Part shown: positions 2,069-27,852 of the stretch, in pieces
Layout of the letters: each line of letters opens with the position of its first letter
Position numbering within the stretch: the first letter of the stretch is position 1
The notes under the pieces: model-generated
Database searches by the model: none
Told to the model about the DNA's origin: nothing
The model's input: the letters and a program-made list of their open reading frames with translations, nothing else
Position numbers and translations under genes: made by a program
DNA from: Escherichia coli
GTDB taxonomy: Bacteria; Pseudomonadota; Gammaproteobacteria; Enterobacterales; Enterobacteriaceae
Strand: one strand, 5' to 3'
NCBI RefSeq assembly: GCF_009931435.1
Contig: NZ_CP043414.1
DNA: 64,000 nucleotides

Positions 2069-4006
2069 TCAGTAACGACGTCCCCATTCCGTGGCGCTCA
2101 TCAACGTTGGTTTATCCCCCATGAAATAGCGGTAGTAAGCGTCATAAGCCAGCACGTTCTTCACATAACCGCGCGTCTCAGAGAACGGAATACTCTCGAC
2201 AAATGCCACTGCGTCGATACGACCAGCGCTGTTGCCAAGCCAGGTGCGCACTCGTCCAGGTCCGGCGTTATAAGCTGCTGAGGCGAAAATACGGTTATTG
2301 CCAAACTGCTGATAAACATATTGCAGGTAACTGGTGCCGATGTTGATGTTCGTTTCCGGATCCAGCAATTGCCCAGGGCTGCTGTAGCCAGGAATAGAGA
2401 ACATCTTCACCGTATGGGTCGCCGTACCAGGCATAATCTGCATCAGCCCGCTGGCCCCTACCGGTGACTTCACTTTCGGATTCCAGGCGCTCTCCTGACG
2501 GGCAATCGCCATCGCATAGCTTTGCGGGATCTCCTTACCGCTGGTGTAACGTTTGAAAAAATCGTTGTAGGCCAGCGGGAATCGTTCTTCCAGATGATCC
2601 CACAACTTCCCGGCGATCGTCGCCTGAACGCTGAGATCCCACCATTGGTTGTTGAAAGCATACCGTGCCAGCTGTGCCTGCTCTGTTTTTGACTTGCTCT
2701 TCACCAGATTGGCCCACTCGCTACGCGCGGTGTTATCGAGATTCCAGTACATCAACTCGCGCACGCGCGCCATCTCCGGCCCCTGAGTCAGGGTGCTGTC
2801 AACATTCTGCGGCGCTTTATCAATCTTCAGCTCATACTCTTCGCCGATGCGCTGTGCAGCAACCATCGGGTAGAAACCACGCTGTTGCATGAGTTGATGC
2901 AGAATCTCTTTCGCTTCAGCTTCACGTCCGCGTTCCAGCAATAAATCGGCCTGCCAGTAACGCCATTCATCTTTCTCTTTCGCTTCCATCGGCAAACGCG
3001 CCAGCCAGGTATTCAGGCCACGCCGATCGCCAGTACCAAGCGCCATCCGCACTCGGCGTTCAATCAACGAGGTGGATTGCGAGCGCATAATGGCGTCATC
3101 GCGCCATTTCGCCTGCTCGTCGGTGACATCGTTGCCCATCAAACGCCAGGCGACGATATCGCGCAGTTCCTGAATCTGATCTTCATTAAGCTGCTGTGCC
3201 TGAGCAAGCGATGGAATCATCAGCCGTGCATTTTCAGCATCCTGCCGTGCCACGCTGGCAAACGCCACCGCCGCCATTTGACGGGTAAAATCGGTCGCAC
3301 CGGTTGTACGCGCGAAGGTCAGTACCGTATTAGGGTTGTTCGCCAGAGAAATAATCGCCGAGGCGATAGTCTGGTAATCAGCAGGCATCTGACCTGCCAG
3401 CACTGTCACCAGACCCGTGTTACCCGCTTTCATCGCCAGACGGATACGCTCTAAATACGCCAGCGGATCTTGTTTGCCTGACGCACGCCAGACACTAAAT
3501 AACTTGTCACAAGCGTTAGGCTGGCTCTTGCCGGTTAGCCACAACTCTTTCGCCCCTTGCCAGGCTTCTTCACTCTGCCCGGTGTTCCATTTCGCATAGT
3601 AGTAATTACATTGCGCTTCGGTAGTTCCGGGCTTTTCCGGGCTAAAGGCTAACAAGCCACGCCAGTCTTCACGCCGCGCCAGTTCATTGACGAAACGAGA
3701 TTGCAGCGTGCGAGCGGGAGGAAGCGTGGGGTTAGCGCGAACAAAGTTAGTGACCGTCACCGCCGGTTGATTCATCAGGTCATCGGTGATCTGACGGTAT
3801 TCCAGGTAGGGATAAAGCGGATAATCTTTCAGTCCAGGCATCATTTGTTCGACCACATCCATTTGTCGATTATCCCAGGCCTGCTTAATTTGCGCGTAAC
3901 GGCTACGCTGCTCATCCAGTGAGTCGGCTCGCGCCACGCTGCTGACCGTCAGCAGACAGACACCGACAGCCAACAGCCGCCAGGTAACGTGTTTGGCTTT
4001 TTCCAC
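2069..4006 (-). CDS. slt: Soluble lytic murein transglycosylase Slt70
   Basis: 645-aa ORF with an N-terminal signal peptide and a C-terminal lysozyme-like domain (...ESAWNPKVKSPVGASGLMQIMPGTA...). Confidence 0.95.
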   Translation of the reverse strand: MEKAKHVTWRLLAVGVCLLTVSSVARADSLDEQRSRYAQIKQAWDNRQMDVVEQMMPGLKDYPLYPYLEYRQITDDLMNQPAVTVTNFVRANPTLPPARTLQSRFVNELARREDWRGLLAFSPEKPGTTEAQCNYYYAKWNTGQSEEAWQGAKELWLTGKSQPNACDKLFSVWRASGKQDPLAYLERIRLAMKAGNTGLVTVLAGQMPADYQTIASAIISLANNPNTVLTFARTTGATDFTRQMAAVAFASVARQDAENARLMIPSLAQAQQLNEDQIQELRDIVAWRLMGNDVTDEQAKWRDDAIMRSQSTSLIERRVRMALGTGDRRGLNTWLARLPMEAKEKDEWRYWQADLLLERGREAEAKEILHQLMQQRGFYPMVAAQRIGEEYELKIDKAPQNVDSTLTQGPEMARVRELMYWNLDNTARSEWANLVKSKSKTEQAQLARYAFNNQWWDLSVQATIAGKLWDHLEERFPLAYNDFFKRYTSGKEIPQSYAMAIARQESAWNPKVKSPVGASGLMQIMPGTATHTVKMFSIPGYSSPGQLLDPETNINIGTSYLQYVYQQFGNNRIFASAAYNAGPGRVRTWLGNSAGRIDAVAFVESIPFSETRGYVKNVLAYDAYYRYFMGDKPTLMSATEWGRRY

Positions 4007-4216
4007 AAGCGCATCCTCTAAGTGTCAATACATCAATGCAGCGTCATGCCGCGTAATAGATTTATGCTAACCAGTCATTGCCGTTTACGCCACGTTACGG
4101 ACACTTTTTTACTTTTACTGCGAGGGTGATCGACCGGCTGGGATTAGATAAGGAAACAGGCTACACTTCGCCTTTGAAAAATCATCATCACGATAAACAT
4201 AGAGGCGAAGTCCAAC

Positions 4217-5884
4217 GTGGCTCAATTCGTTTATACCATGCATCGTGTCGGCAAAGTTGTTCCGCCGAAACGTCATATTTTGAAAAACATCTCTCTGAGT
4301 TTCTTCCCTGGGGCAAAAATTGGTGTCCTGGGTCTGAACGGCGCGGGTAAGTCTACCCTGCTGCGCATTATGGCGGGCATTGATAAAGACATCGAAGGTG
4401 AAGCGCGTCCGCAACCGGATATCAAGATTGGTTACCTGCCGCAGGAACCTCAGCTGAACCCGGAACACACCGTGCGTGAGTCCATTGAAGAAGCGGTTTC
4501 TGAAGTGGTTAACGCTCTGAAACGTCTGGATGAAGTGTATGCGCTGTACGCCGATCCGGATGCCGATTTTGACAAGCTGGCCGCTGAACAAGGCCGTCTG
4601 GAAGAGATCATTCAGGCTCATGACGGTCATAACCTGAACGTTCAGCTGGAGCGTGCGGCGGATGCGCTGCGTCTGCCGGACTGGGACGCGAAAATCGCTA
4701 ACCTTTCCGGTGGTGAGCGTCGTCGCGTGGCGTTGTGCCGCCTGCTGTTGGAAAAACCAGACATGCTGCTGCTCGACGAACCGACCAACCACCTGGATGC
4801 CGAATCCGTAGCGTGGCTGGAACGCTTCCTGCACGACTTCGAGGGCACCGTGGTTGCGATTACCCACGACCGTTACTTCCTCGATAACGTTGCAGGCTGG
4901 ATCCTCGAACTTGACCGCGGTGAAGGTATTCCGTGGGAAGGTAACTACTCCTCCTGGCTGGAGCAGAAAGATCAGCGTCTGGCGCAGGAAGCTTCACAAG
5001 AAGCAGCGCGTCGTAAGTCGATCGAGAAAGAGCTGGAGTGGGTACGTCAGGGAACTAAAGGCCGTCAGTCGAAAGGTAAAGCACGTCTGGCGCGCTTTGA
5101 AGAGCTGAACAGCACCGAATATCAGAAACGTAACGAAACCAACGAACTGTTTATTCCACCTGGACCGCGTCTGGGCGATAAAGTGCTGGAAGTCAGCAAC
5201 CTGCGTAAATCTTACGGCGATCGTCTGCTGATTGATGATCTGAGCTTCTCGATCCCGAAAGGGGCGATCGTCGGGATCATCGGTCCGAACGGCGCGGGTA
5301 AATCAACCCTGTTCCGTATGATCTCTGGTCAGGAACAGCCAGACAGCGGCACCATCACTTTAGGTGAAACGGTGAAACTGGCATCTGTCGATCAGTTCCG
5401 TGACTCAATGGATAACAGCAAAACCGTTTGGGAAGAAGTTTCCGGCGGGCTGGATATCATGAAGATCGGTAACACCGAGATGCCAAGCCGCGCCTACGTT
5501 GGCCGCTTTAACTTTAAAGGGGTTGATCAGGGTAAACGCGTTGGCGAACTCTCCGGTGGTGAGCGTGGTCGTCTGCATCTGGCGAAGCTGCTGCAGGTTG
5601 GCGGCAACATGCTGCTGCTCGACGAACCGACCAACGACCTGGATATCGAAACCCTGCGTGCGCTGGAAAACGCCCTGCTGGAGTTCCCGGGCTGCGCGAT
5701 GGTTATCTCGCACGACCGTTGGTTCCTCGACCGTATCGCCACACACATTCTGGATTACCAGGATGAAGGTAAAGTTGAGTTCTTTGAAGGTAACTTTACC
5801 GAGTACGAAGAGTACAAGAAACGCACGCTGGGCGCAGACGCGCTGGAGCCGAAGCGTATCAAGTACAAGCGTATTGCGAAGTAA
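4217..5884 (+). CDS. ettA: ABC-F translation factor EttA (YjjK)
   Basis: 555 aa with two ABC cassettes (GLNGAGKST..LSGGERRR..LLLDEPTNHLD and GPNGAGKST..LSGGERGR..LLLDEPTNDLD). Confidence 0.95.
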   Translation: MAQFVYTMHRVGKVVPPKRHILKNISLSFFPGAKIGVLGLNGAGKSTLLRIMAGIDKDIEGEARPQPDIKIGYLPQEPQLNPEHTVRESIEEAVSEVVNALKRLDEVYALYADPDADFDKLAAEQGRLEEIIQAHDGHNLNVQLERAADALRLPDWDAKIANLSGGERRRVALCRLLLEKPDMLLLDEPTNHLDAESVAWLERFLHDFEGTVVAITHDRYFLDNVAGWILELDRGEGIPWEGNYSSWLEQKDQRLAQEASQEAARRKSIEKELEWVRQGTKGRQSKGKARLARFEELNSTEYQKRNETNELFIPPGPRLGDKVLEVSNLRKSYGDRLLIDDLSFSIPKGAIVGIIGPNGAGKSTLFRMISGQEQPDSGTITLGETVKLASVDQFRDSMDNSKTVWEEVSGGLDIMKIGNTEMPSRAYVGRFNFKGVDQGKRVGELSGGERGRLHLAKLLQVGGNMLLLDEPTNDLDIETLRALENALLEFPGCAMVISHDRWFLDRIATHILDYQDEGKVEFFEGNFTEYEEYKKRTLGADALEPKRIKYKRIAK

Positions 5885-15949: not shown

Positions 15950-16075
15950 GAAGGCGTTGTTGCCAGATGGCGGATGTTGTTATTGCCTGATGCGATGCTG
16001 ACGCATCTTACAAGGCCTACACGGCACTCGACCCGTAGGCCGGATAAGGCGTTCGCGCCGCATCCGGCATCCACC
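15950..16075. repeat. REP/BIME elements in the deoC-deoA intergenic region
   Basis: REP-type palindromes GCCTGATGCGATGCTGACGCATCTTACAAGGCCTAC and GTAGGCCGGATAAGGCGTTCGCGCCGCATCCGGCA. Confidence 0.5.
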
Positions 16076-17129: not shown

Positions 17130-18680
17130 ATGCCCACTTCTCATGAAAATGCACTGCAACAACGTTGCCAGCAAATTGTCACCAGCCCGGTACTTAGCCC
17201 GGAGCAGAAACGCCATTTTCTGGCGCTGGAAGCAGAAAACAATCTGCCTTACCCGGCGTTGCCTGCCGAAGCCCGCCGCGCGCTGGATGAAGGTGTAATC
17301 TGCGATATGTTTGAAGGTCATGCGCCGTATAAACCGCGCTATGTCTTACCCGATTACGCCCGTTTTTTGGCCAACGGTTCCGAATGGCTGGAGCTGGAAG
17401 GCGCAAAAGATCTTGATGACGCACTCTCTCTGCTGACCATTCTTTACCACCACGTTCCTTCGGTCACATCGATGCCGGTCTACCTGGGGCAACTGGATGC
17501 GTTGTTGCAACCGTATGTTAGAATTCTAACACAAAACGAGATCGATATTCGAATAAAACGTTTCTGGCGTTACCTCGACAGAACCCTGCCAGACGCCTTT
17601 ATGCACGCCAATATTGGCCCGTCTGATTCACCCATTACCCGTGCGATTTTACGCGCAGACGCAGAGCTGAAGCAGGTTTCACCGAACCTGACTTTTATCT
17701 ACGATCCTGAAATCACCCCTGATGACCTGCTGCTGGAAGTGGCGAAAAACATCTGTGAATGTAGCAAACCGCACATCGCCAACGGTCCCGTGCATGATAA
17801 AATTTTCACAAAAGGGAGCTACGGGATTGTGAGCTGTTACAACTCACTGCCGCTGGCGGGTGGTGGCAGTACGCTGGTACGCCTCAACCTGAAAGCCATT
17901 GCCGAGCGCAGCGAATCGCTGGATGACTTCTTTACGCGCACTCTACCGCACTACTGCCAACAGCAGATCGCCATCATCGATGCGCGGTGTGAATTCCTCT
18001 ATCAACAATCACACTTCTTTGAGAATAGCTTCCTGGTGAAAGAAGGGCTGATTAACCCTGAACGTTTTGTGCCAATGTTTGGCATGTACGGACTGGCAGA
18101 AGCGGTTAACTTGTTGTGTGAGAAAGAAGGAATTGCCGCACGTTACGGTAAAGAAGCCGCTGCGAATGAAGTGGGTTATCGCATTAGCGCGCAACTGGCG
18201 GAGTTTGTCGCCAATACCCCCGTGAAATATGGCTGGCAAAATCGCGCCATGCTACACGCACAGTCGGGGATAAGTTCCGATATCGGCACCACGCCGGGCG
18301 CGCGTTTGCCGTATGGCGATGAGCCAGATCCGATCACCCATCTGCAAACTGTCGCCCCGCATCATGCTTATTATTATTCCGGCATCAGCGACATTTTGAC
18401 GCTCGACGAAACCATCAAACGTAATCCGCAGGCGCTGGTACAGCTTTGCCTCGGTGCCTTTAAAGCCGGAATGCGTGAATTTACCGCCAATGTCAGCGGT
18501 AACGATCTGGTTCGCGTTACCGGTTATATGGTGCGTTTGTCGGATTTAGAAAAATATCGTGCCGAAGGTTCACGTACCAATACCACCTGGCTGGGAGAAG
18601 AAGCCGCACGCAACACTCGTATTCTGGAACGCCAGCCGCGCGTGATAAGCCATGAACAGCAGATGCGCTTTAGTCAGTAA
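17130..18680 (+). CDS. yjjI: YjjI, glycine-radical-enzyme-like protein (DUF3029)
   Basis: 516-aa [20 protein letters not shown]..., divergent from deoC and followed by its activase yjjW. Confidence 0.85.
17516..17531. promoter_or_regulatory. DeoR operator O1 (deoP1)
   Basis: Perfect palindrome TGTTAGAATTCTAACA; spacing to O2 is 599 bp as published for the deo operon; lies inside the yjjI reading frame. Confidence 0.65.
17795..17810. promoter_or_regulatory. Candidate DeoR distal operator OE
   Basis: TGATAAAATTTTCACA, 12 of 16 matches; centre lies 878 bp from O2, the published O2-OE distance. Confidence 0.4.
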
Positions 18681-19515
18681 GATTATCCCCTTCTCCTGCG
18701 TTGACGGGCCAGGCAGTCGTCTGGCTCTGTTTTTACAGGGCTGCAATCTGCGCTGCAAAAACTGTCACAATCCGTGGACGATGGGGCGCTGTAATGATTG
18801 CGGTAAGTGCGTGCCACAGTGTCCGCATCAGGCGTTGCAGATTATTAACAGCAAAGTAGTGTGGAACGCAGCCGTCTGCGAGCAGTGTGATACCTGTCTG
18901 AAGATGTGTCCGCAACATGCCACGCCGATGGCGCAATCCATGAGCGTGGATGAGGTGCTTAGACATATCCGCAAAGCGGTGCTGTTTATCGAAGGGATAA
19001 CGGTAAGCGGCGGCGAAGCCACGACCCAGCTGCCGTTTGTGGTGGCGCTTTTTACTGCCATCAAAAACGATCCGCAACTGTGCCATCTCACCTGTCTGGT
19101 GGACAGTAACGGCATGTTGAGAGAAACCGGCTGGGAAAAATTGCTCCCGGTGTGCGACGGCGCGATGCTCGATCTCAAAGCGTGGGGAAGCGAATGTCAT
19201 CAGCAGCTAACCGGACGCGATAATCAGCAGATCAAGCGCAGCATTAGTCTGCTTGCCGAGCGCGGCAAACTGGCAGAACTGCGTTTGCTGGTAATCCCAG
19301 GCCATGTGGATTATTTGCAGCATATCGATGAGCTGGCGGCGTTTATCAAGGGACTTGGCGATGTTCCGGTACGCCTGAACGCGTTTCATGCTCACGGCGT
19401 GTATGGCGAGGCGCAAAGCTGGGCGAGCGCCACGCCGGAAGACGTTAAGCAATTGGCTGATGCGTTACGGGAGCACGGGGTGAGCCGATTAATATTTCCG
19501 GCGCTGTATTTGTGA
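18652..19515 (+). CDS. yjjW: Glycyl-radical enzyme activating protein (radical SAM) YjjW
   Basis: 287 aa; radical SAM motif CNLRCKNC plus ferredoxin-like cysteine clusters; overlaps the yjjI 3' end. Confidence 0.85.
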
Positions 19516-19516
19516 C

Positions 19517-19735
19517 ATGGCGGATGCAGCCTACGGTTCGGCACAGACCTGTAGGCATGATAAGACGCGTCAGCGTCGCATCAGGCATTGTGCGCCAACT
19601 GCCGGATGCGGCGTGAACGCCTTATCCGGCCTACGGTTCGGCACAGACTTGTAGGCATGATAAGACGCGTCAGCGTCGCATCAGGCATTGTGCGCCGACT
19701 GCCGGATGCGGTGTGAACGCCTTATCCGGCTTACG
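19517..19735. repeat. Tandemly duplicated REP/BIME cluster (two ~100-bp units)
   Basis: Unit CCTACGGTTCGGCACAGAC(C/T)TGTAGGCATGATAAGACGCGTCAGCGTCGCATCAGGCATTGTGCGCC(A/G)ACTGCCGGATGCGG(C/T)GTGAACGCCTTATCCGGC occurs twice, about 19529-19628 and 19629-19730. Confidence 0.6.
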
Positions 19736-19744
19736 AAGGGCAGA

Positions 19745-20527
19745 CTACCCACGAACGTTAAACACCGCATACGTGTTATTAAGCAACACTTCGGCAATCT
19801 CATCCGCGGGTTCCGGGCGTAACTCGCACAGCACGGCAAACACACGGGCGGCCTGTTCAGGGCGATTAGGCTGCCCCTGAAAACCATTGAGCGGCATATC
19901 CGGTGCGTCGGTTTCCAACAACAACGATGCCAACGGTAATTTTGCGATGACATCGCGGGTTTTACTGGCGCGTGGATAGGTGATAGTACCGCCTACGCCA
20001 ATTTTGTAGCCCAGCTGCACAAACCGTTCGGCCTGTTGCTGGCTGCCAGAAAAACCATGAACCACACCAGTGCGTGGCAAATTTTGGCGTTTAAGATGCA
20101 TCGCCAGTTTGTCGTGCGTGCGCCGTGAATGAAGGATCACCGGCAGATCGTAGCGTTTCGCCAGTTTCAGTTGTTCATCAAGCAACCTCTGCTGCCTCTC
20201 AAATTGCGGATCGTCACCAAAGAGATCCAGGCCGATCTCCCCCACCGCCACCACCTTCGTCGGACGTCTTTCCAACGCCTGCTGTAATTGATCCAGCGAT
20301 GCATCGTTATGTTTTTCCAACATCCCCGGATGCAACCCTAAAGCGGCATACAGTGGTTGATAATTTTCCGCTAACGCCTGCACACGGGCAAAATTTGCCG
20401 CCTCGGTGGCCGGAACAATGATCTTGCCTACGCCCGCTTGTGCCGCGCGTTGCAGGCTGGCCTCTTCATCGCCACTAAACGGCGGGAAATCAAAATGGCA
20501 GTGGGTGTCGATAAAACGGCAAATCAA
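19745..20527 (-). CDS. yjjV: TatD-family metal-dependent hydrolase YjjV
   Basis: 260-aa ORF MICRFIDTHCHFDFPPF... with TatD signature histidines. Confidence 0.85.
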   Translation of the reverse strand: MICRFIDTHCHFDFPPFSGDEEASLQRAAQAGVGKIIVPATEAANFARVQALAENYQPLYAALGLHPGMLEKHNDASLDQLQQALERRPTKVVAVGEIGLDLFGDDPQFERQQRLLDEQLKLAKRYDLPVILHSRRTHDKLAMHLKRQNLPRTGVVHGFSGSQQQAERFVQLGYKIGVGGTITYPRASKTRDVIAKLPLASLLLETDAPDMPLNGFQGQPNRPEQAARVFAVLCELRPEPADEIAEVLLNNTYAVFNVRG

Positions 20528-21597
20528 GCCAAATCCTCATTGTTAAATGTCGGGTCGTTCGCCTGTGGAGCGTCTATCACCTCGGTAACCAGCGTATCGT
20601 TGGCGACGGGTGCAGGCGGAATAACGATCGACTCCGGCGTCACCACCGGCACCAGATGGCGGCTCAGCGGCGCTTTTTCAGTCAATAACTTACCGACCGT
20701 TGCCAGAAAATAACGCCCGCATAAACGCCCAAGTTTATAGTCTTCACGCAGCGCCGGAATCCGACTGCCGAGCGCGATACTATGTAATGGCTTCGGCGGA
20801 TAAATTTCGAATATCCTCAACTGGCCCGGTGGTTTCTCAATAAATTGCTGAATCTCACGATAGCTGGTTTCATGATGCTGCACCAGATTGACCAGCGGCT
20901 GCAGGCTACTGTCACCCAACCAGCGTTCCATGCGTTTGAACCACTGCGGCGTATAGTACATTTGTGACGGCACAGTGCGGATGACGACCAACGTTTTTGC
21001 GCCCTGCCTTGCCGCCTCTTTAACCGGGATCGCATCACTGATCCCGCCATCCAGGTAATTAATGCCTTCCAGCGACACTCCGCTACGATAAAAGCCAGGT
21101 ATTGCACTGGAGGCGCGAATCACATCCAGCCAGTTCTGTTTGGTTGGCAAAAAGTAATTCGGCGCATAGTCATCCTGACGACAAGCGCACATATAAAACG
21201 ATTTGCCGCTGTCAAATAGCCGCGCTGCGGTGTCCATTTGCAACGGCATCTGGCTTGCGGTGGCCTCCACCAGCCAGTCGAGATCGATAAGATTTCCTCC
21301 ACGGACAAAGCGCAATGGATCGAAAAATTCGCGTTTTGTGGTATAGCGCATGATGACTTTGCGCGCGTAACCGGGCTGATTGCAGATATACGCCGAGAGG
21401 TTCTGCGCCCCGGCAGATGTGCCGAGATAAAGATCGAAAGGATTAAACTGCGCGCGCATAAACTCATCCAGCACGCCAGCTGTGAAAATTCCACGCTGCC
21501 CGCCGCCTTCGCACACCAGAGCTATTCGTCCAGGCTGGAACGGCCTTAGCGACAACGGCGCAATATTACCAAGCGTTACAGGTATTCGCTGCCCCAC
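20524..21597 (-). CDS. yjjU: Patatin-like phospholipase YjjU
   Basis: Patatin motifs GGGQRG and GTSAG; GTG start chosen to give (M)GQRIPVTLGNIAPL... (357 aa), track ORF starts at an upstream TTG. Confidence 0.8.
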   Translation of the reverse strand: MGQRIPVTLGNIAPLSLRPFQPGRIALVCEGGGQRGIFTAGVLDEFMRAQFNPFDLYLGTSAGAQNLSAYICNQPGYARKVIMRYTTKREFFDPLRFVRGGNLIDLDWLVEATASQMPLQMDTAARLFDSGKSFYMCACRQDDYAPNYFLPTKQNWLDVIRASSAIPGFYRSGVSLEGINYLDGGISDAIPVKEAARQGAKTLVVIRTVPSQMYYTPQWFKRMERWLGDSSLQPLVNLVQHHETSYREIQQFIEKPPGQLRIFEIYPPKPLHSIALGSRIPALREDYKLGRLCGRYFLATVGKLLTEKAPLSRHLVPVVTPESIVIPPAPVANDTLVTEVIDAPQANDPTFNNEDLA

Positions 21598-27359: not shown

Positions 27360-27395
<36 letters not shown>

Positions 27396-27530: not shown

Positions 27531-27617
27531 GCGAAGGTGGCGGAATTGGTAGACGCGCTAGCTTCAGGTGTTAGTGTCCTTACGGACGTGGGGGTTCAAG
27601 TCCCCCCCCTCGCACCA
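27531..27617 (+). tRNA. leuQ: tRNA-Leu (anticodon CAG), copy 1
   Basis: 87-nt GCGAAGGTGGCGGAATTGGTAGACGCGCTAGCTTCAGGTG...CCCTCGCACCA with encoded CCA; long variable arm; anticodon CAG. Confidence 0.95.
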
Positions 27618-27645
27618 AAAACCACGTTGATATTGCTCGCACTGG

Positions 27646-27732
27646 GCGAAGGTGGCGGAATTGGTAGACGCGCTAGCTTCAGGTGTTAGTGTTCTTACGG
27701 ACGTGGGGGTTCAAGTCCCCCCCCTCGCACCA
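27646..27732 (+). tRNA. leuP: tRNA-Leu (anticodon CAG), copy 2, with a C-to-T change at position 48
   Basis: Identical to copy 1 except GTTCTTACGG instead of GTCCTTACGG in the variable arm. Confidence 0.95.
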
Positions 27733-27765
27733 AACGAGGCGATATCAAAAAAGTAAGATGACTGT

Positions 27766-27852
27766 GCGAAGGTGGCGGAATTGGTAGACGCGCTAGCTTC
27801 AGGTGTTAGTGTCCTTACGGACGTGGGGGTTCAAGTCCCCCCCCTCGCACCA
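27766..27852 (+). tRNA. leuV: tRNA-Leu (anticodon CAG), copy 3
   Basis: Identical to copy 1. Confidence 0.95.

Follow-up and report, generated by a model that had tools for sequence, protein, structure and literature searches.

A two-unit BIME-2 array between yjjW and yjjV of Escherichia coli, probable orthologue of K-12 REP352 and polymorphic in unit number

Described relatives and anatomy of the yjjW–yjjV array

REP sequences of E. coli fall into types y, z1 and z2 (Ton-Hoang et al. 2012, PMC3333891), and the BIME-2 family, as summarised by these authors from Gilson 1991 and Bachellier 1994, combines them in an inverted y/z2 alternation, with a tail-to-tail linker of ~16 nt, to form tandem units whose number varies between strains. 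BIME-2 linkers differ between loci (PMC3333891); the arrays themselves, their y/z2 make-up and their copy-number variation between strains are known from descriptions of the 1990s, repeated in 2012. The tldD–yhdP element is named as a BIME-2 cleaved by gyrase (Sutormin et al., PMC6379681). REP325, the BIME located between yjdM and yjdN, is also a tandem array, one Y+Z2 unit of which served to define the naRNA4 family, RF02564 (PMC4550694). REPINs, by contrast, are REP doublets mobilised by RAYT and are usually dispersed as single doublets. At the locus considered here, the EcoCyc name of the yjjV–yjjW element is REP352a–h, with a 2-nt overlap with yjjV (2024 preprint, 10.1101/2024.07.17.603846).

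We analysed the repeat that separates yjjW from yjjV in a 64-kb stretch of DNA, referred to as the window, which is ordinary E. coli (98.6% identity, over 8 kb, to the complete genomes that match it best). Our main reading, to which we give a probability of about 0.93, is that this repeat is a BIME-2 orthologous to K-12 REP352a–h, that it predates the species E. coli and that it varies in unit number as a stable, heritable polymorphism. The element is already catalogued, as REP352, and its polymorphism is of a published kind; in this sense, both are already known.

A preliminary description of the window had reported a ~100-bp REP-containing unit present twice in tandem between the convergent yjjW and yjjV genes. 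Tandem Repeats Finder indeed delimits an array at 19529–19735 (period 100, 2.1 copies, 96% matches, no indels, score 386), a repeat search of the window returned two 100-nt copies spaced 100 nt apart, and the open reading frames, the annotation and the matches to the y and z2 patterns place a REP/BIME element between yjjW (plus strand) and yjjV (minus strand), in the 229 bp that separate the stop codons of these two convergent genes. The duplication had been called perfect and, at the same time, credited with three mismatches; the exact comparison bears out the count and not the adjective, the units 19529–19628 and 19629–19728 being 97% identical, base by base, with mismatches at 19549 (C/T), 19597 (A/G) and 19612 (C/T). 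When the units are framed from the linker to the CTAC foot (19535–19634 and 19635–19734), a fourth difference is added at 19631/19731. No match to the y and z2 REP patterns is expected by chance (0.00 over 100 shuffles of the window), and the only other tandem repeat with a score of at least 80 in the 64 kb is a tRNA-Leu array. The features of the region are as follows.

18652–19515, plus strand: yjjW, glycyl-radical enzyme activase, left flank (open reading frame; annotation of matching E. coli genomes; stop TGA at 19513–19515)
19518–19534, plus strand: remnant of a y-type REP, internally deleted, 17 nt, TGGCGGATGCAGCCTAC (comparison of alleles)
19535–19550, plus strand: tail-to-tail linker of unit 1, 16 nt, GGTTCGGCACAGACCT (module parse)
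19551–19587, minus strand: z2-type REP of unit 1, GTAGGCATGATAAG...CATCAGGCA on the plus strand (pattern at 19551–19586 with 0 mismatches; Z2 hairpin of naRNA4)
19588–19598, plus strand: head-to-head linker of unit 1, 11 nt, TTGTGCGCCAA (module parse)
19599–19634, plus strand: y-type REP of unit 1, CTGCCGGATGCGGCGTGAACGCCTTATCCGGCCTAC (pattern at 19601–19634 with 0 mismatches; Y hairpin of naRNA4)
19635–19650, plus strand: tail-to-tail linker of unit 2, 16 nt, GGTTCGGCACAGACTT (module parse)
19651–19687, minus strand: z2-type REP of unit 2, same sequence as its counterpart in unit 1 (pattern at 19651–19686 with 0 mismatches; Rfam alignment)
19688–19698, plus strand: head-to-head linker of unit 2, 11 nt, TTGTGCGCCGA (module parse)
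19699–19734, plus strand: y-type REP of unit 2, CTGCCGGATGCGGTGTGAACGCCTTATCCGGCTTAC (pattern at 19701–19734 with 2 mismatches)
19735–19744, plus strand: tail separating the yjjV stop codon from the last REP, 10 nt, GAAGGGCAGA (comparison of alleles)
19745–20527, minus strand: yjjV, TatD-family metal-dependent hydrolase, right flank (open reading frame; annotation; stop TAG, the reverse complement of CTA at 19745–19747)
19554–19631, minus strand: first naRNA4 (RF02564) match, full length, with Y hairpin, linker and Z2 hairpin (79.1 bits for a gathering score of 59.5)
19654–19731, minus strand: second naRNA4 (RF02564) match, full length (71.4 bits for a gathering score of 59.5)

Read along the plus strand, the spacer comprises (i) the y remnant, which begins 2 nt past the yjjW stop codon; (ii) two successive sets of a 16-nt linker, a 37-nt z2 REP, an 11-nt linker and a 36-nt y REP; and (iii) the 10-nt tail that leads from the end of the last y REP to the yjjV stop codon. 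The array can thus be written y'-(linker16 - z2 REP - linker11 - y REP)n, with n = 2. The 16-nt linker has the form GGTTCGGCACAGACYT and the 11-nt linker the form TTGTGCGCCRA in both units. GTAG forms the first bases of both z2 REPs on the plus strand, and the foot of the y REP reads CTAC in unit 1 and TTAC in unit 2, as a result of one substitution. The z2 REP of unit 1, whose usual TGCC...CTAC form reads on the minus strand, is close in sequence to the z2 REP of the K-12 tldD–yhdP BIME-2. Note that here and in the other genomes units were parsed by splitting the sequences at the GGTTCGG linker, in place of a fuzzy pattern parse that missed REPs in long arrays.

The array has the following attributes of a BIME-2. 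It is built of y and z2 rather than z1 REPs, the z-type REP being 37 nt long with the extended GACGC...GCGTC stem; its REPs alternate in inverted orientation and carry GTAG/CTAC feet; and it occurs in tandem copies that vary in number between strains. The long L linker with an IHF site, which defines BIME-1, is absent judging from length alone, since the longest linker is 16 nt. BIME-2 elements are further defined by a short S linker flanked by an s, l or r motif; compared by length and position only, the linkers of the array (11–12 nt head-to-head and 16 nt tail-to-tail) would agree with a "short" linker. We base the assignment to BIME-2 on the layout, which is that of the tldD–yhdP BIME-2, and on the units, which are full-length matches to naRNA4, i.e. 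to one Y+Z2 unit of REP325. More specifically, tldD–yhdP displays, like the yjjW–yjjV array, a y REP ending with CTAC, a ~15-nt linker, a very similar z2 REP starting with GTAG, a short linker and a y REP. Its period is however ~92 bp instead of 100–101 bp, and its linkers differ: 5 nt (ACGGC) where the array has 11–12 nt, TTGTGCGCCAA(C), and GGTTATGTTCCGTTT where the array has GGTTCGGCACAGACYT. Both units exceed the gathering score of RF02564 on the minus strand, whereas the scores on the plus strand (54.7 and 51.9) lie under it. Each of them aligns with the Y hairpin, 12–13-nt linker and Z2 hairpin of the naRNA4 model. REP325 itself lies at another locus, has another linker and is found inside an operon between tandem genes rather than between convergent ones.

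The array also resembles REPINs, in that two inverted REPs are predicted to form one long, imperfect hairpin on either strand. Thus, in the predicted minimum-free-energy structures of both strands, z2 is paired with y over ~35 nt, and both strands fold into structures far more stable than those of shuffled sequences (z = -6.9 and -5.1). Unlike the usual dispersed REPINs, the doublets are here arranged head-to-tail at one conserved locus, an arrangement that implies no new insertion.

The closest relative of the array is REP352a–h of K-12, whose eight REPs are consistent with four y/z2 pairs. The two elements share the locus, the flanking genes, the deleted y remnant, the 16-nt and 11-nt linkers and the y and z2 REPs. 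They differ in size, MG1655 having four 101-bp units in a spacer of 419 bp and the window two 100-bp units in 229 bp, with z2 loops that are 1 nt shorter than those of REP352. They also differ at their right end: the yjjV stop codon is part of the last y REP in K-12 and is separated from it by the 10-nt tail in the window, where YjjV ends with ...FNVRG instead of ...FNVP. The RefSeq feature table of MG1655 contains no REP feature in the yjjW–yjjV spacer.

Unit number across genomes

Since a query containing the repeat was swamped by REP matches elsewhere, BLAST searches were performed with the two flanks only, which located the yjjW–yjjV locus in 5,423 of 5,426 genomes. The distribution of unit number was then established on 59 rank-spaced genomes out of these 5,423 complete E. 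coli genomes, a collection that is clinically biased. At least one representative of every spacer class was read at the sequence level and parsed, which confirmed the unit counts given below.

Spacer of ~30 bp: 0 units, 2 genomes of 59
Spacer of ~112 or 129 bp: 1 unit, 14 genomes of 59
Spacer of ~213 or 231 bp: 2 units, 10 genomes of 59
Spacer of ~314 bp: 3 units, 4 genomes of 59
Spacer of ~415 bp: 4 units, 11 genomes of 59
Spacer of ~516 bp: 5 units, 16 genomes of 59
Spacer of ~617 bp: 6 units, 2 genomes of 59

The comparison of copy number across E. coli genomes, which the preliminary description had put forward, thus yields 0–6 units in the 59 genomes sampled, so that the two-unit state is not universal. 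Among the alleles that were read, the y REP adjoining the yjjW stop codon is intact (TGCCGGATGCGGCGTAAACGCCTTRTCCGGCCTAC) in two only, the allele of CH4794, which has the intact form y-(z2-y)2, and the zero-unit allele of PEB17-18, where one intact y REP is all that separates the two stop codons, 33 bp apart. In all the others, only its head and its CTAC tail are kept (17–19 nt). A similar internal deletion is seen in the last y REP of PBS4, O157, EC21Z-097, NH-21 and 31B19CPO010B. The C-terminus of YjjV varies as well. It reads ...FNVP in K-12, PEB17-18 and CH4794, whose yjjV stop codon comes from the CTAC that ends the last y REP, and ...FNV(R/S)G in the window and in most of the remaining alleles, whose stop codon is provided by a second CTAC, 10 nt past the REP.

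Within the clones sampled, the length of the spacer was constant. The four sampled laboratory strains derived from K-12 have the same span, estimated at ~416 bp (419 bp in MG1655), and the genomes of the O104:H4 / 55989 lineage, of which more than 15 were sampled, all have 229 bp. In such clones, copy number therefore seems to be stable, and the frequent within-clone change that characterises hypermutable contingency loci and VNTRs was not seen in this small sample, which consists of assemblies only. The proposal that the site is prone to slippage or recombination thus has to be split: copy number does change across the species, from 0 to 6 units, but it is constant within the clones sampled. 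In other words, the site is variable on the time scale of the species and does not look hypermutable.

The locus was also scanned in other species, with one genome per species and an exact 26-nt pattern spanning the linker junction, a pattern that arrays with an altered junction would escape. In the species-representative genomes, the junction was found only at the yjjW–yjjV locus of Escherichia sp. E1V33, which has 2 units, and of Escherichia sp. MOD1-EC7003, which has 11 (10.9 copies according to Tandem Repeats Finder). The exact junction was not found in the other species representatives, that of E. coli included, where the array itself may still exist. The array of MOD1-EC7003 extends over ~1.1 kb (positions 3230–4351 of its locus sequence), has an additional higher-order period of 201 bp (Tandem Repeats Finder) and exceeds by far the length of all E. 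coli alleles sampled.

Age of the two-unit state and routes of copy-number change

If, as initially proposed, the array resulted from a recent duplication specific to this strain, i.e. if one ~100-bp REP unit had been copied shortly ago and three mutations had occurred since, then the two units should resemble each other more than any other unit. Their 97% identity goes in this direction, and so does the z2 loop, which is 1 nt shorter in both units (GTCAGCGTC) than in K-12, where all four units have GTCAAGCGTC or a variant of it; this shared shorter loop implies some homogenisation within the array. However, in the linker-to-CTAC register, unit 1 of the window is only 0, 1, 1 and 2 nt away from unit 1 of RMDEC465, 2020CK-00188, LR-58-1 and 2017-02-2CC, respectively, and unit 2 is 2 nt away from unit 2 of three of these strains, while the two units of the window are 4 nt apart. 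Moreover, the four differences between the units of the window are repeated in IMT16316. From these comparisons we infer that the two units of the window are orthologous, by position, to the first and the last unit of arrays in other strains, and therefore that neither is a fresh duplicate of the other.

The spacers of the 60 genomes whose flanks come closest to those of the window also argue against a recent event. About 35 of them have a length of 229 bp (O104:H4 and 55989 included), 18 a length of 218 bp, six contain one unit and one is 256 bp long. The 218-bp spacer corresponds to two units minus 11 bp at the left end, a structure read in IMT16316 alone, whose length the 17 others share; spacers of two-unit length are thus found in ~53 of the 60 genomes. 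That this abundance reflects a single, very recent clone is argued against by the divergence of the flanks, which reaches 2–7%. Adding the presence of the array in other Escherichia species, we regard a recent duplication as very improbable. An assembly artefact, whereby the repeat would have been collapsed or expanded and the true unit number would be different, deserves even less credit: 100-bp tandem repeats are open to miscounting in short-read assemblies, but typical read pairs span more than the ~200 bp of the array, the same two-unit structure with the same internal differences is present in many independently assembled complete genomes, and the length classes are consistent within clones. 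Altogether, the sequences indicate that the two-unit state, with its differentiated units, is old, inherited and widespread: the units are closer to the same-position units of other strains than to each other, the same inter-unit differences recur in IMT16316, and the array exists in two other Escherichia species.

The 1-nt shorter z2 loop is present in both units in the relatives of the window, and in unit 2 only in 2017-02-2CC and CH4794; likewise, the ACCT and ACTT variants of the linker trade positions between strains. These patterns look like traces of occasional exchange between units. In addition, two different one-unit alleles are found among close relatives, a pure unit 1 in RMDEC465 and a unit with a unit-2-like right half in E8; therefore, at least two separate copy-number changes have taken place.

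Judging from the sequences, such changes most likely occur by mispairing of adjacent units during replication or recombination. Whole units of ~100 bp would be gained or lost via unequal pairing of neighbouring units, which share identical runs of up to 47 bases, and occasionally units would exchange sequence. The events involved may be replication slippage or unequal recombination in the identical 37-nt z2 REPs and the conserved y REPs. A transposase could also be at work, namely TnpA-REP (RAYT), through cleavage and strand transfer at CC|TAC sites; in vitro, this enzyme cuts such sites and can recombine BIMEs (Ton-Hoang et al. 2012, PMC3333891).

That units are added or removed site-specifically by TnpA-REP at the CC|TAC feet of the REPs, and not by slippage or unequal crossing-over, is possible, though we consider it unlikely. 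The in vitro data comprise cleavage of iREP within CTAC and at TGCC|TGAT as well as the joining of BIMEs, and their authors propose a role in copy number (PMC3333891); both types of cleavage site occur once per unit in the window. The one-unit allele of RMDEC465 is also suggestive, as its pure unit 1 meets the right flank directly after CTAC, a place where units 1 and 2 share only ~4 nt. This junction has other explanations, though, e.g. an ancestor with identical units, and E8 may owe its single unit to an exchange anywhere in the 47 identical nt that both units have in common, as slippage or homologous exchange would produce. Finally, a mobilome study found that the exonuclease-resistant coverage of REP352 is raised under stress, but without circular junction reads for this element (preprint, 10.1101/2024.07.17.603846). 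Of the two routes, mispairing of adjacent units seems the likelier.

Flanking diversity and possible roles of the array

The array is surrounded by diverged sequences. A block of ~2 kb centred on it (18750–20750), comprising the greater part of yjjW, yjjV and the beginning of yjjU, is only 90–94% identical to K-12, against 96–100% for the neighbouring regions. Over the 330 nt on each side of the array, 16 E. coli genomes differ by up to 10–12%, a divergence equal to that from the two other Escherichia species. The nearest relatives also differ between the two sides: on the yjjW side, the window is 98.8% identical to E8 and 93.3% to LR-58-1, and on the yjjV side, 99.7% identical to LR-58-1 and 97.2% to E8. 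Given this divergence and the different nearest relatives of the left and right flanks, the region looks like a mosaic of deeply diverged haplotypes, joined by recombination at the array or close to it. The yjjW–yjjV part of the chromosome presumably lies near the hsd region, a region of high effective recombination.

One may go further and suppose that the array marks a recombination junction in an unusually deep polymorphism, where the BIME-2 itself would promote or anchor exchanges or where the number of units would be under selection; we hold this extension to be improbable. If exchanges were indeed promoted or anchored by this BIME-2, or if selection acted on the number of units (0–11) as a dial that sets how strongly the convergent genes are expressed, the locus would offer a natural setting in which to test how REP arrays shape local diversity and gene expression.

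By analogy with other BIME-2 elements, the inferred role of the array is to provide the two convergent genes with 3'UTR hairpins and, possibly, to form a gyrase site. On either transcript, hairpins formed by single REPs, or the longer one formed by a z2/y doublet, would act as stable 3'UTR structures that block 3' exonucleases and partly keep transcription from running on into the facing gene. At the DNA level, the y REPs would be candidate sites of DNA gyrase binding and cleavage. Several observations made on other elements are relevant here. REP325 stabilises mRNA and terminates transcription partially, in a Rho-dependent manner; expression is higher for convergent gene pairs that have a REP in between (bioRxiv 10.64898/2026.03.23.713779). 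REPs located at most 15 nt from the stop codon are reported to lower the translation of the upstream gene, as cited in the mobilome preprint (10.1101/2024.07.17.603846); in the window, the distances are 10 nt on the yjjV side and, for the y remnant, 2 nt on the yjjW side. Gyrase cleavage sites are enriched in BIME-2, more in y than in z2 REPs (PMC6379681); in the supplementary files of this gyrase map that were consulted, neither yjjV nor yjjW occurs. In the region 19300–19950, a scan predicted no intrinsic terminator and no sigma-70-like promoter.

The RF02564 matches could alternatively mean that the units are genes for naRNA4-like small RNAs, which, together with HU, would bridge DNA cruciforms and compact the chromosome, the tandem copies setting the dosage. 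Both units are full-length matches above the gathering score on the minus strand (79.1 and 71.4 versus 59.5), and naRNA4 from REP325 is reported to condense DNA together with HU (Qian et al. 2015, PMC4550694). RF02564 is, however, in effect one BIME-2 unit, so that a match denotes sequence membership and not function. Moreover, a promoter-like site is lacking in the region scanned, some strains have no complete unit at the locus, and the nucleoid-condensing role itself is disputed in a 2026 preprint whose authors include the senior author of the 2015 study (10.64898/2026.03.23.713779). We therefore deem small RNA genes highly unlikely and favour the role as 3'UTR hairpins proposed above.

Taken alone, the array is of little importance, given that BIME-2 variation has long been published and that the locus is catalogued in K-12 as REP352. 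The spacer nevertheless constitutes a length-polymorphic marker (0–6 units) that is seemingly stable within clones and could aid typing, and its repeat can mislead alignments and assemblies. Isogenic alleles with different numbers of units would form a convenient series for studying the effects of REPs on the 3' ends of convergent genes.

Two further observations concern the surroundings of the array. In K-12, a ChIP study reported intragenic sigma-54 binding sites inside yjjV and yjjW (PMC4591121), which are unrelated to the repeat. In the window, there are also two further single y-type REPs, at 16035–16068 (minus strand), just past the deoC stop codon, and at 27361–27394 (plus strand), upstream of the tRNA-Leu array mentioned above; the latter consists of three tandem tRNA-Leu(CAG) genes at 27531–27852, presumably the leuQPV cluster, which Tandem Repeats Finder describes as 2.7 copies with a period of 120.
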